DNA of 64,000 bases from Vicinamibacterales bacterium (lineage in GTDB: Bacteria; Acidobacteriota; Vicinamibacteria; Vicinamibacterales; UBA8438): contig OZ253457.1 of assembly GCA_965261285.1 (NCBI GenBank), positions 854,760 through 918,759 on the forward strand, given 5' to 3'. Under the pieces are notes generated by a model. That model was not told the origin of the DNA. It made no database searches and was given only the letters and a program-made list of their open reading frames with translations. Within the stretch, counting starts at the first letter, position 1. Each line of letters begins with the position of its first letter. Below, one piece after another: positions 1 through 5,698 of this stretch. The position numbers and the translations under genes are program-made.

Positions 1-158
1 CCGTCCACGTGCACGGTGCAGGCCCCGCAGGCGGCGATGCCGCAGCCGAACTTGGTGCCCGTCAGTCCGAGCGTATCGCGCAGCACCCACAGCAGCGGCG
101 TGTCCGGCTCCACGTCCACTGTGCGGGGCTCACCGTTCACGTTGAGCGTGATTGCCAC
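1..158 (-). CDS. (2Fe-2S)-binding small subunit of a molybdenum hydroxylase (IorA/CoxS-like), 5' part only; runs off the window edge
   Basis: Manual translation from GTG at 158: [53 protein letters not shown], with the GCxxxxCGAC 2Fe-2S motif; GGGAGG Shine-Dalgarno upstream. Not in the ORF track. Confidence 0.9.
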
Positions 159-259: not shown

Positions 260-505
260 ATGGACGGAACCCCGTCGTCGCACACCGTGGACAAGTGGGT
301 GCCCCGGCTGTTCTGGGCCGCGGCCGCCGTCGGCATCGCCGTGTTGGCCTACCGCAACCTCCCGTGGTTCCGGTCACCGGCAGACGATTCCGTATTCATG
401 CTGGGGTTCCCCTTGGTCCTGGCCGGGGTGCGGTGGTGGTTCCGGAAAGTGGTGTGGCCGGCCGATCTGCCGGACGACGCCAGCCGGCTCGAGGAGAGTC
501 CATGA
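260..505 (+). CDS. small hypothetical membrane protein (2 TM helices)
   Basis: ORF 152..505; ATG at 260 gives 81 aa with two hydrophobic segments (LFWAAAAVGIAVLAY, VFMLGFPLVLAGVRWW). Confidence 0.5.
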   Translation: MDGTPSSHTVDKWVPRLFWAAAAVGIAVLAYRNLPWFRSPADDSVFMLGFPLVLAGVRWWFRKVVWPADLPDDASRLEESP

Positions 506-554: not shown

Positions 555-2321
555 TCAGGACGAGGGCGCTTCCTCGATCTCCACGTCGAACGCCGCCGTC
601 TCGACCGCCGTTCCCGGCTTCACCTGGACGACGATGCGGTAGGCGCCCGGTGCCGGGAAGACGAAGGGGAACTCCACCCGGTTGGCGGGGCCGGACGGCG
701 AATGGCCTCCGTGCTCCGCGCTGGGCGCCTCGCCGCCGGCGCCGCCCTCCGCCTCGGTGAAGCGTCGTTGCGCGGCGAGGTTGATGCTGCCGGCGGGATG
801 CAGGTGCACGAACACGGAGCCGTCGTCCCGGAGGACGGCGGCGTGGCTGAGCATGCCCATGTAGGGCTCGAGGGCCGACGGCGTTCCATCCGGCTCGGTC
901 ACCGAGAACCGCAGCGTGGCCTCCTCGTCGACCGCGATCGGGCCGTCGCGTTCCCATCGCATGGTGCGCCCGCTGAGCAGCGGGTAGCTCTCCGATGGCG
1001 ATGCGCCGTAAGGGCGCAGGGTCGCCCAGGAGTCGTCCGGGTCGGGCGCCGGACCCCCCGCCGGCGCGTCGCTGCCATCCGCCGCCTCCCGTGGGCCCCC
1101 GCCGGGGCCGGCCGGCGGTACCCGCGCCGTGTTCACCAAGGTGGGCGCGAACCCGTTCTCGTGCACGATGTCGGCGTAGATGCGGTACTCGCCGGCCGGC
1201 AGCGGCGGCAGCGGCACCGTGAACGACGCGTCGCCGTCACCGTCGCGCACGGGGTGGACGTGGGCGAACGCCGACAGGTCGTCGGCCCGCACCAGGAACA
1301 GGTGCATCAGCTTGCCGTGGTCCGGCAGCAACGCCGCCCCGGGCAGGCCCCGGCTCGCGGACCACCGTGGATCGTCGATCTCGAGGGTCAGGACCTGCCC
1401 CCCGTCGGCTGTCGTCACGGCCGCGGTGGTGCTCCACGGGCGGTAGATGCGGCTCCGGTAGGCGGCGTCGACCGCGTCCCACCAGCGCCAGCCGCCGAGG
1501 AGGACGGCGCCGAGCACGACCGAGAACACGACCATCGCGAGGCGGCCGCGGCGGCGCCGCCACGCGTCGGGCTCGCGGCCCGGCTCGAGCACGCTCTCGC
1601 GGACGGCGGCGCCGAGGATGGTCAGCGCCCCCGCGAAGAGGAACAGGGCGGCGGCGGCGAGCCCCAGACCGACCACGGGATCCATGCCGAGCCGCCGCTC
1701 GGCCAGCGCCAGCACGGGGACGAAGACCGTTCCATTCCCGGCCGCGCCGGCCACGCCGACCTCCACGCTGTACGAGCCGGCCGTCATCAGCCACAGCTCG
1801 CCGCCGTACAGCCCCGCCTCGCCCCGCACGGGGCGGGCGGCGTCGGGGGGCGGCGCGCCCTCCAGCCCCACGTCCGACCGCAACGGGCGCACCGTCACCC
1901 GCTCGACGCCCTCGCCCTCGAGAATCCGCACCGTGACCTGGGCGAGGCCGGGGACCACGCCGGGCGTCCGCACGATGACGCGGACGCCGTACGGCCCCGC
2001 CGCGCCGTCGAAGTAGGCATTGGAGGTGCCCACGTGGGCCGAGGCGACCACCCCGCCGGCGGCGGCGAGCACGGCCGCGAGCAGGACAGCGGCACGCGTG
2101 CGCAGCCGGGTGGCGAGCGCACTCCCCGGGGGGGCGGCGGCAACCTCGGGCGATCGCGGGCCGCGTCGCGGCGGCACGAAGAACCGGGGCGGGACGCTGG
2201 CAACCTCGGGCGATCGCGGGCTGCGTTGCAGCGGCAAGAGGAACCGGGACGGGACGCCGGCAGCCTCGGGCGATCGGGGGCCGCGTCGCGGCGGCACGAA
2301 GAACCGTAGCGAGGCGGCCAC
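555..2321 (-). CDS. exported, membrane-anchored His-rich putative copper protein (PmoB-like architecture; candidate B subunit)
   Basis: GTG starts 1 nt after the upstream TAG. Signal peptide ending ASA then His (HVGTSNAY), a soluble beta-rich domain, two TM helices, then two domains each with H-x(n)-HxHP (HGKLMHLFLVRADDLSAFAHVHP; YMGMLSHAAVLRDDGSVFVHLHP). Confidence 0.75.
   Translation of the reverse strand: MAASLRFFVPPRRGPRSPEAAGVPSRFLLPLQRSPRSPEVASVPPRFFVPPRRGPRSPEVAAAPPGSALATRLRTRAAVLLAAVLAAAGGVVASAHVGTSNAYFDGAAGPYGVRVIVRTPGVVPGLAQVTVRILEGEGVERVTVRPLRSDVGLEGAPPPDAARPVRGEAGLYGGELWLMTAGSYSVEVGVAGAAGNGTVFVPVLALAERRLGMDPVVGLGLAAAALFLFAGALTILGAAVRESVLEPGREPDAWRRRRGRLAMVVFSVVLGAVLLGGWRWWDAVDAAYRSRIYRPWSTTAAVTTADGGQVLTLEIDDPRWSASRGLPGAALLPDHGKLMHLFLVRADDLSAFAHVHPVRDGDGDASFTVPLPPLPAGEYRIYADIVHENGFAPTLVNTARVPPAGPGGGPREAADGSDAPAGGPAPDPDDSWATLRPYGASPSESYPLLSGRTMRWERDGPIAVDEEATLRFSVTEPDGTPSALEPYMGMLSHAAVLRDDGSVFVHLHPAGSINLAAQRRFTEAEGGAGGEAPSAEHGGHSPSGPANRVEFPFVFPAPGAYRIVVQVKPGTAVETAAFDVEIEEAPSS
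2139..2306. repeat. 60-bp tandem repeat, about 2.8 copies, encoding the N-terminal extension of the 555..2321 protein
   Basis: Units start at 2141, 2201 and 2261 (caacctcgggcgatcgcggg...gaaccgg). Confidence 0.9.
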
Positions 2322-2322
2322 G

Positions 2323-3930
2323 CTACCTCCGGACCCGCGCCAGCCAGTCGCCGCACCAGAGGCCGAGGGCGGCCGACACCGCGGCGACCAGCGCGGTGCG
2401 GCCCGCCGTCCCCGCCGTCATCGGCTCGCCCCAGAACTCGTACTGGAAGGCCCCGGGGGCCACGTTGTAGCCGAACTGGTCGGCCGCGAAGACGAAGTTG
2501 CGGGCGCCCTCGGTCAGGAGGAACCCGGCGAACGGCCACTGCACGGCGGCGAGCGCGAGCATCGCGGCGACGCCCGCCCCGGCGGCGCCCGCCATTCGCC
2601 GGATGCCGCCCACGCCGGCCGGCATCCGGCGAATGGCGGCGTCGATGACGAGGGCCGGGGCCACGAGCAGGATGGGGAACGACGGCGGCACCATGCGGTC
2701 GATGTCGCGCAGTATCGGGGCCAGCATCGGCTGGGCGGGAAAGAGCTGCAGCGTCCACATCACGAGCAGGGTGACGCCCATGTAGGCGCCGCCGGCGGCG
2801 GTGGCCCCCCACCGCGCCGCCGCGCCCCGGGCGATGCCGGTCAGCAGGAAGGGGAAGATGGCGGCGCTCACGAGGAAGAACGTCGGTCCGTGCTGCTGGT
2901 TGGGCGTCATGATGTACTCGGCGAACAGGGTCGCCACCATCAGGATCACCAGGCCGCCCGCGTAGGGGAACAGCCCCTGGAGCACCCGGTCGGCGGCCGC
3001 CGCGCGGTTCTGCCGGGCCACCGCCATCAGCATCGCGCCGGCGCCGATGCCGAACATGCCCAGGGCGAGGACGACGTGGGGCGGGCTCAGTATCTCGACG
3101 TCGAGCCCGTAGGCGTTGTGCCACCAGTCGTCGAAGGGGGCCGACACGATCATCGCCAGCGCGCCCCAGATGCAGAGCCAGGCCCCGAGCGGGCCGCGGA
3201 AGCCCCAGAACCGGACGCCGGCGGCGCGTTCCTCCGGGCTGCCCGCGAAGGTGGTGCGCAGCACCAGCCAGCCGCACGAGAGCCCCGCGACGACGCCGCC
3301 CAGGTAGATGGCGAGGTGGGCCGGCGTCCAGAAAGAGTCGCGCCCGATGGACCGGTGCCACGAGATGTCCCAGAGCACCCCGACGATGATGCTCGTCGAC
3401 GCGAACGTGACCGCGAGCAGGGACCAGGGGACGGTCGCCGCCGCCTTCGGCGCCGCCGCGTCGGGTTCGGCCACCGCCGCCGCCGCGTCGGGTTCGGCCA
3501 CCGCCGCCGCCGCGCGGGGTTCGGCCACCGTCGCTGCCGCGTCGGGTTCGGCCACCGCCGCCGCCGCGCGGGGTTCGACCACCGCCGCTGCCGCGTCGGG
3601 TTCGGCCACCGCCGCTGCCGCGTCGGGTTCGGCCACCGCCGCCGCCGCGCGGGGTTCGACCACCGCCGCTGCCGCGTCGGGTTCGGCCACCGTCGCTGCC
3701 GCGTCGGGTTCGGCCACCGTCGCTGCCGCGTCGGGTTCGGCCACCGTCGCTGCCGCGTCGGGTTCGGCCACCGCCGCTGCCGCGTCGGGTTCGGCCACCG
3801 CCGCTGCCGCGTCGGGTTCGGCCACCGCCGCTGCCGCGTCGGGTTCGGCCACCGCCGCTGCCGCGTCGGGTTCGGCCACCGCCGCCGCCGGGGCGCCCGG
3901 AGCCCGCGCGGGAAGCCCGAGGCTGGACAT
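2323..3930 (-). CDS. polytopic membrane protein with PmoC/AmoC-like CuC and CuD motifs fused to a PmoA/AmoA-like domain
   Basis: ATG 3930 is preceded by TACGCT 6 nt upstream (leaderless-type). Motifs WDISWHRSIGRDSFWTPAH and FDDWWHNAYGLDVEILSPPH. C-terminal FP..WGAT, FPxxLVxxAxxxD, WP and ADxxGY resemble PmoA. By-eye comparison only. Confidence 0.7.
   Translation of the reverse strand: MSSLGLPARAPGAPAAAVAEPDAAAAVAEPDAAAAVAEPDAAAAVAEPDAAAAVAEPDAAATVAEPDAAATVAEPDAAATVAEPDAAAAVVEPRAAAAVAEPDAAAAVAEPDAAAAVVEPRAAAAVAEPDAAATVAEPRAAAAVAEPDAAAAVAEPDAAAPKAAATVPWSLLAVTFASTSIIVGVLWDISWHRSIGRDSFWTPAHLAIYLGGVVAGLSCGWLVLRTTFAGSPEERAAGVRFWGFRGPLGAWLCIWGALAMIVSAPFDDWWHNAYGLDVEILSPPHVVLALGMFGIGAGAMLMAVARQNRAAAADRVLQGLFPYAGGLVILMVATLFAEYIMTPNQQHGPTFFLVSAAIFPFLLTGIARGAAARWGATAAGGAYMGVTLLVMWTLQLFPAQPMLAPILRDIDRMVPPSFPILLVAPALVIDAAIRRMPAGVGGIRRMAGAAGAGVAAMLALAAVQWPFAGFLLTEGARNFVFAADQFGYNVAPGAFQYEFWGEPMTAGTAGRTALVAAVSAALGLWCGDWLARVRR
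3458..3889. repeat. 27-bp coding tandem repeat x16, (AAA[A/T]V[A/V]EP[D/R])n
   Basis: Unit cgcgtcgggttcggccaccgccgctgc; 16 copies counted in the translation. Confidence 0.97.
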
Positions 3931-3936
3931 CTGTCC

Positions 3937-3942
3937 AGCGTA
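3937..3942 (-). promoter_or_regulatory. putative -10 element of a leaderless promoter for the CA-B unit
   Basis: TACGCT-ggacag-ATG(3930) on the minus strand. Confidence 0.4.
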
Positions 3943-4150
3943 ACGCAGGGCCCCGAACCGCGGCAAGATTCCCGCGGCCTGCGGCCCGCGCGGGCGCCGG
4001 CGTGGCGTCGGCCCCGGCGACGCGCTACTATCACCCCGAGTCGACACCGCACCCCGACCGTCGCCGCTCGGCGTTCCGTCGGGACGGTCGCGGCCCGGCG
4101 GAGGGCCGGTTTCCGGACCGGGCCGGCCGGTCCCGCACAGCAGGTTCCGC

Positions 4151-5698
<1,548 letters not shown>

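Follow-up and report, generated by a model that had tools for sequence, protein, structure and literature searches.

A candidate copper-binding periplasmic protein encoded beside a membrane protein with PmoC-type motifs in a Vicinamibacterales genome

In a 64,000-nucleotide stretch of DNA from a Vicinamibacterales bacterium (GCA_965261285.1, contig OZ253457.1, positions 854,760 to 918,759 of the forward strand; hereafter the window), two abutting open reading frames (ORFs) on the minus strand encode a polytopic membrane protein (4158..2323, 611 amino acids; hereafter the partner) and, directly downstream of it, an exported protein with conserved histidine clusters (2321..555, 588 amino acids; hereafter the target). 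We consider it somewhat probable, mainly by analogy, that the target serves as the copper-binding periplasmic subunit of a self-contained membrane metalloprotein encoded by two genes, and is an architectural analogue of PmoB from particulate methane monooxygenase (pMMO). This reading is carried by a predicted N-terminal histidine on the mature protein, by two duplicated C-terminal domains bearing nearly invariant histidine clusters, by a layout in which soluble domains flank a membrane hairpin, and by a nearly constant upstream neighbour with two D-H-H motifs spaced as in the metal sites of PmoC. The features involved are listed below in window positions; residue 96 of the target ORF is predicted mature residue 1, and both numberings are used in what follows.

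2323..4158, minus strand: partner ORF, called as 611 amino acids; the conserved core is the last ~380 amino acids (2323-3462), with ~10 transmembrane (TM) helices
555..2321, minus strand: target ORF as called, 588 amino acids, GTG start; the predicted mature protein comprises residues 96-588
2037..2120, minus strand: predicted Sec-type signal peptide, residues ~68-95, with the n-region RLRTR, a hydrophobic core, and A-S-A before the predicted cleavage
2034..2036, minus strand: codon of His96, predicted mature residue 1, the His that follows the predicted cleavage in VVASA-HVGT
1701..2036, minus strand: N-terminal eight-strand beta-sandwich, mature residues 1-112 (1-110 in the model), distantly YtkA-like
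1452..1679, minus strand: two-helix membrane hairpin, mature helices 120-147 and 158-195, joined by a short, basic loop on the cytoplasmic side (RESVLEPG...RRRRGR)
1107..1445, minus strand: C1 beta-sandwich, mature residues 203-306, with D334-H335-G-K-L-M-H340 ... H354-V-H356-P (ORF numbering)
Mature residues about 307-335, minus strand: low-confidence linker between C1 and C2 in the AlphaFold2 model
558..1040, minus strand: C2 beta-sandwich with an inserted helix, mature residues 336-488, with Y487-M-G-M490-L-S-H493 ... H506-L-H508-P (ORF numbering)
681..749, minus strand: disordered loop inside C2, mature residues 430-452, often containing His or Met; here H537 and H540

Histidine sites and domain architecture of the target

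Conservation was assessed on 128 aligned family sequences sharing 34-84% identity, 119 of which have a complete N-terminus. The n-region is positively charged in all 119 complete N-termini, a hydrophobic core is present in 118 of them, and the residue at position -1 is A (100 sequences), G (16) or S (3). A histidine occupies position +1 in 124 of the 128 sequences, preceded by a median of 23 amino acids. Because these features follow the textbook pattern of a Sec signal peptide, the mature N-terminal histidine that a first-pass annotation of the window had predicted from cleavage between VVASA and HVGT is well supported in silico.

The histidine clusters of the two C-terminal domains are the best-conserved part of the target. 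H340, H354, H356, H493 and H506 (mature H245, H259, H261, H398 and H411) are invariant in the 128 sequences, and conservation reaches 98% or more at H335, H508, Y487 and M490 (mature H240, H413, Y392 and M395); since mean column identity across this alignment is only 30%, conservation of the clusters goes far beyond chance. Furthermore, C1 and C2 are a duplicated pair, matching each other both in BLASTP (E 6e-5) and in hhalign (a probability of 95.6%, E 1.3e-8), and their clusters therefore represent equivalent sites, reading D-H-G-K-x-M-H...H-x-H-P in C1 and Y-M-G-M-x-x-H...H-x-H-P in C2, with an added Asp/His in the former and an added Tyr/Met/Met in the latter. The first-pass annotation had recognized both clusters and the methionines near them, and in this it was right; the spacing of H-x(10-12)-HxHP that it gave has to be amended to H-x13-HxHP in C1 and H-x12-HxHP in C2. 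A PHM/DBH-like two-copper arrangement of C1 and C2 was also considered and rejected, fold and sequence support for it being absent.

The AlphaFold2 model of the target has a mean predicted local distance difference test (pLDDT) score of 93.7 and a predicted template modelling (pTM) score of 0.91, and it concurs with hydropathy analysis on a layout composed of a beta-sandwich, a two-helix membrane hairpin and two further sandwiches, in agreement with the PmoB-like order of soluble and membrane segments that had been read from the sequence at first pass. When the full model was compared to the PDB with Foldseek, the 50 best matches were generic immunoglobulin (Ig)/FN3 arrays (filamin, contactin FN3 and complement MG domains) with TM-scores of ~0.15, and a phmmer search of the PDB with the target returned chance-level S28e matches only. 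As the eight strands of the N-terminal domain would bring both of its termini to the same end of the sandwich, His1 may lie near the membrane surface. Likewise, the modelled strand boundaries of C1 suggest that H245 would pair across a hairpin with H261, and that H259 would lie on the same face (mature numbering).

The N-terminal domain appears to be distantly related to YtkA. The target family profile matches PDB entry 9LL2, annotated as a copper resistance protein, with an E-value of 0.0099, and the matched 9LL2 fragment is itself recognized as YtkA (PF13115) at 2.6e-18. The family consensus matches PF13115 at profile positions 4-84 of 85 (E 7.7e-5, 23.7 bits), and eight of 89 family members do so individually at E<=0.05, the best of them at 2.8e-4. 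Taken together, these comparisons suggest a distant likeness to the fold of the CtaK and YcnJ copper chaperones. YtkA domains are membrane-tethered extracytoplasmic copper-handling modules implicated in CuA assembly (CtaK), and in YcnJ a YtkA domain is fused to the C-terminus of a CopC-CopD copper importer (PMC13344008).

Within this domain W82 and M84 are near-invariant, and His1 is the sole conserved histidine of mature residues 1-112. The domain by itself therefore has no classical two-His brace: across the 128 sequences, the N-terminal His lacks the conserved companion His that histidine-brace copper proteins (LPMO, CopC and PmoB at CuB) carry alongside it in one domain. A second ligand of His1 could possibly be provided by another domain or by the partner. 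No relation between the N-terminal domain and either C1 or C2 was detected with hhalign.

The upstream partner and its PmoC-type motifs

The partner is found directly upstream of the target, on the same strand, at 70 of 72 loci drawn from several phyla, and at 16 of 17 loci within the phylum of the window, with a median distance of 17 nt between the two genes. In 14 regions of 15-20 kb, taken from 10 genera, the pair has no other conserved neighbour, which argues that the two-gene module is self-contained.

The partner contains two motifs, D32/H36/H49 and D111/H115/H129, that remain invariant among homologs down to 28% identity. A phmmer search of the PDB with the motif region retrieves AmoC chains only (E 0.026-0.037), and both partner motifs, D-x3-H-x12-H and D-x3-H-x13-H, show a gap-free alignment with AmoC, the shared form of the second being [D/N]-x3-H-x13-H. 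Over the first site, alignment of the partner to a PmoC/AmoC alignment with hhalign yields a probability of 80.9% (E 1.2e-5), and the DxSWHxxIxRDxxxTPxH block agrees with AmoC at 12 of 18 positions. We take these motifs to correspond to the CuC ligands (Asp156, His160, His173) and the CuD ligands (Asn227, His231, His245) of Methylococcus capsulatus PmoC. The structure of the partner is predicted with confidence (pLDDT 91.9) and contains about 10 helices. The partner has no match to CopD or to any other transporter family, and the genome from which the window derives has no match to PF04896 (AmoC) or PF02461 (AmoA).

Several loci depart from the standard arrangement. The two that break the pairing, L077 and L118, belong to metagenome-assembled genomes (MAGs) of Gemmatimonadales and Verrucomicrobiia, and their ~2.7-2.9 kb of upstream sequence contain no recognizable partner. 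An orphan partner paralog, the second copy in genome G199 (L024:1498-2691, minus strand; 397 amino acids), retains both D-H-H motifs and has no target-like neighbour; a short-chain dehydrogenase/reductase (SDR)-type gene lies beside it on the opposite strand. In a genome of the same genus as the window (L016/L025; G110:C1:2131807-2132948), matches to the partner fall in two frames, covering profile positions 13-211 and 206-393, upstream of an intact target, and the split partner may be a pseudogene broken by a frameshift or else stem from a sequencing error. Finally, in a Gemmatimonadetes MAG (QHTP01000016.1; L072:121-2775) partner and target occupy a single open frame, from which the last ~13 profile positions of the partner are missing. 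This joined frame could reflect a natural fusion, in which case a 1:1 complex would be favoured; the alternative is an artefact of assembly or frameshifting.

Proposed role and competing explanations

Under the proposed role, Sec export followed by signal-peptide cleavage would expose a free His on a YtkA-like Ig-fold domain, after which the target would cross the membrane twice and display two duplicated Ig-like domains with their three-His clusters and a flexible His/Met loop. The target would dock on the partner, in which the two D-H-H sites, spaced like CuC and CuD of PmoC, lie within the first four helices, and it would capture periplasmic copper and either hold it or pass it, or electrons, to those sites. 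Copper capture and relay is the role usually discussed for PmoB in pMMO. By motif logic and by analogy, copper loading or electron relay by the target is plausible; the two proteins would form a complex, and transfer would presumably run from the target to the sites of the partner. The holo-complex may be either an oxygenase-like enzyme or a device for copper trafficking. The metal would by the same analogy be copper, which is favoured by the histidine at +1, the methionines next to the C2 cluster, the loop rich in His and Met, and the resemblances of the N-terminal fold to YtkA and of the partner to PmoC.

Several observations weigh against this proposal. On the side of the partner, likeness to PmoC is limited to ~115 of ~380 residues, Foldseek comparison of the full partner model to the PDB gives a best E-value of 0.099 with neither PmoC nor PmoA among the 50 best matches, a PDB search with a profile of close partner homologs found nothing, and two of the 72 loci have no partner within ~3 kb upstream. 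On the side of the target, the putative three-His sites would fit Zn, Ni or Fe as well, the N-terminal domain of the window protein has itself no Pfam match, the score of the family consensus lies below the YtkA gathering score of 25.9, and in the profile alignment the Met-rich loop of 9LL2 is replaced by a conserved G-A-P-P-P-D.

The first-pass annotation had described the target as either homologous or analogous to PmoB. If it were homologous, the target would be a true, extremely diverged PmoB, and the pair a deep branch of the copper membrane monooxygenases (CuMMOs) in which a C gene (or a C-A fusion) is followed by a B gene, oxidizing a substrate. We regard this as unlikely, although a number of observations speak for it. 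The PmoC-like gene precedes the B-like one, as in the pmoCAB order; the target combines an N-terminal His, comparable to the CuB ligand His33 of PmoB, with a sandwich/hairpin/sandwich layout and a partner that has both PmoC motifs at exact spacing; and its mature start, HVGTSNAYF, recalls the HGEKSQAAF with which PmoB begins. Lack of the canonical CuB site does not set the target apart from all CuMMOs, since verrucomicrobial pMMO is an accepted CuMMO without the CuB HxH. That site had been judged absent from the target at first pass, and the family alignment bears this out: GSYSVE is found at the equivalent strand, and the positions corresponding to PmoB H137 and H139 vary across the family (S/A/G/Q/R and R/E/H/D/Q, respectively), so that the N-terminal domain has no conserved HxH.

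Direct comparisons, however, give homology no support. Authentic PmoB sequences were taken from the PDB, and the resulting PmoB alignment of seven sequences (48-97% identity) forms a shallow profile, because the homolog search with M. capsulatus PmoB gave only sequences of at least 82% identity. Against this shallow alignment, hhalign assigns a probability of 0.56% to the whole target, and of 0.1%, 1.6% and 0.9% to the N-terminal, C1 and C2 domains, respectively. No match to PF04744 (Monooxygenase_B) was found in the window protein (E<=1), its three domains (E<=10), 89 relatives (E<=0.05) or its own genome (E<=1). In the Foldseek comparison that had been proposed as a check, neither PmoB nor AmoB is among the 50 best matches in the PDB. 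Furthermore, the N-terminal domain scores as YtkA-like, the third domain has no counterpart in PmoB, no PmoA likeness was seen by Foldseek in the C-terminal half of the partner, and the genome is without an AmoA or AmoC Pfam match. Of the two relationships first suggested, the analogous one fits the layout, the N-terminal His and the partner, and we regard the resemblance to PmoB as architectural, common descent not being demonstrable. The near-obligate neighbour of the target carries PmoC-like metal motifs, and no PmoA was seen among its 50 best Foldseek matches. A related and equally doubtful view is that the pair might be a divergent CuMMO branch in which a PmoC-type core is joined to a non-cupredoxin B subunit, whose His1 and two three-His copper centres would form a periplasmic relay of electrons or copper to a substrate-oxidizing active site within the membrane.

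Pure copper trafficking or uptake without catalysis, in the manner of CopC-CopD, YcnI-YcnJ or CtaK, is quite unlikely in our estimation. The target would then feed a permease or metallate respiratory oxidases, as could be expected from its YtkA-like N-terminal domain, given that YtkA domains occur in CuA assembly and fused to CopC-CopD in YcnJ (PMC13344008), and CopC and YcnI have an N-terminal His ligand (PMC8424229). The flexible His/Met-rich loop and the patchy, accessory-like distribution of the pair (16 of the 301 genomes of the phylum) would also suit this role. Nevertheless, the only detectable relatives of the partner are PmoC and AmoC rather than CopD or another transporter family; the two rigid, conserved three-His clusters resemble fixed cofactor sites rather than hand-over sites; and the 14 regions hold no conserved gene for a copper regulator, a P-type ATPase or an oxidase close to the pair.

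A zinc-dependent, other-metal-dependent or metal-free Ig-domain scaffold or sensor accompanying a membrane hydrolase or channel is very unlikely, for even though the Foldseek matches are generic Ig/FN3 arrays, H...HxH triads also bind Zn, as in carbonic anhydrase, and the D-H-H site of PmoC was originally modelled as zinc, the near-invariant +1 His and the methionines flanking the C2 triad, taken with the likeness of the fold to YtkA and of the partner to PmoC, jointly point to copper.

Family distribution, gene boundaries and known systems

The target family is large, with >2,500 relatives in a 90%-clustered collection, all of them unnamed or labelled hypothetical; an exhaustive phmmer search of 50%-identity representatives delimits it as 2,713 clusters at E<=1e-3, of which 486 remain at E<=1e-30. 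In a scan with one genome per species, homologs occur in at least 584 genomes. The 80 best genomes are all MAGs, mainly of Vicinamibacterales, Gemmatimonadota and Thermoanaerobaculia, with a few from Verrucomicrobiota, Methylomirabilota and Eisenbacteria. Inside the phylum of the window the pair is patchily distributed, in 10 of 185 genera. The target family is without a Pfam or NCBIfam model: searches of both collections gave no family match for target or partner, and nothing usable for the three target domains taken separately. A search of the available literature found no paper on PmoC-like or PmoB-like families outside the CuMMOs.

The target ORF (555..2321, minus strand, 588 amino acids) is present as originally called, its GTG lying 4 nt downstream of a GGAGG that overlaps the stop codon of the upstream partner; the part of that call in doubt is the start. 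Both ORFs of the pair, in a window of ~73% G+C, contain lineage-specific tandem repeats in their called N-terminal regions.

2131..2306, no strand assigned: 60-bp tandem repeat, 2.9 copies, corresponding to target ORF residues ~5-64; most homologs are without it
3451..3890, no strand assigned: 27-bp tandem repeat, 16.3 copies with 93% matches, in the N-terminal extension called for the partner ORF, where it would be translated as (AEPDAAAAV)n

Target homologs are typically ~500 amino acids long and lack the 60-bp repeat, which makes up most of the first ~65 residues of the called protein, and partner homologs are typically 393 amino acids long and lack the 27-bp repeat; the true start codons of both ORFs are therefore uncertain. 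As each 27-bp unit contains an in-frame GTG, the real start of the partner may be at or after the repeat. The 60-bp repeat, which sits between the partner stop codon and the target signal peptide and reads in frame as FFVPPRRGPRSPEVA..., could be an N-terminal extension peculiar to this lineage. Alternatively it is intergenic and the start lies downstream (e.g. the GTG at residue 49), and the ORF call may then have taken in a repetitive element from between the genes. A single unit similar to it is present in the closest NCBI relative (P0011).

Two further genes flank the pair in the window. Positions 3-158 (minus strand), ~400 bp downstream of the target, hold the beginning of a [2Fe-2S]-binding protein, a small subunit of the aldehyde oxidase/isoquinoline oxidoreductase type (MAITLNVNG...CGACTV), which is not conserved beside the pair elsewhere. 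The divergently oriented ORF at 4151-5698 (plus strand) encodes a 515-amino-acid polytopic protein that resembles, by sequence motifs, a BCCT-type betaine/choline transporter.

We know of no relatives of the PmoC metal core that have partner proteins of their own outside the methane-, ammonia- and alkane-oxidizers. Here, a family whose carriers number at least several hundred species, from soil phyla that are abundant and for the most part uncultured, appears to keep PmoC-type sites, while a different, His-rich three-domain protein stands in the place of PmoB. The catalytic copper site of pMMO is still debated, and this family would offer a natural comparison for asking whether the contribution of the periplasmic subunit is copper loading, electron entry or scaffolding, and which features of the C-subunit core are essential. 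Should the pair be a divergent CuMMO branch after all, it would be a previously unrecognized one that is common in soil Acidobacteriota and Gemmatimonadota. The analysis also defines two unnamed domain families, a duplicated H...HxHP Ig-like domain and a YtkA variant with an N-terminal His, both of which could be named and their metal binding tested with simple soluble constructs. The YtkA-like domain is of a known kind, and so is the proposed role of a periplasmic copper partner, for which PmoB, CopC and CtaK are examples; the architecture and the duplicated His-triad domain are new.

Among known systems, CopC and YcnI (DUF1775) share with the target an exported Ig-like domain, a conserved mature His1 and a polytopic membrane partner with conserved histidines, but the N-terminal domain of the target is without a second conserved His/Asp ligand and its partner is not CopD; the CopC model (PF04234) gave a chance-level match only, at C1 residues 68-108 (E 0.14; 13.6 bits, the cut-off being 23.3). 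The YtkA-like proteins (PF13115; Bacillus subtilis CtaK, the C-terminal domain of YcnJ, and 9LL2) resemble the target in being extracytoplasmic, membrane-tethered and associated with copper, whereas the target further comprises a TM hairpin and two more domains and begins with a free N-terminal His. The partner differs from PmoC/AmoC (PF04896) in having no match to that family and about six extra helices, and is like it in the identical spacing of both D-H-H motifs. Finally, the target has three sandwiches where PmoB/AmoB (PF04744; PDB 3RGB/7S4H chain A) has two of cupredoxin-like type, and its C-terminal three-His clusters are not found there; yet it shares with PmoB a signal peptide cleaved (in the target, by prediction) before a histidine, a periplasmic beta-sandwich, two TM helices and a periplasmic beta-sandwich in this order, and a gene placed directly after one with PmoC-type D-H-H motifs.

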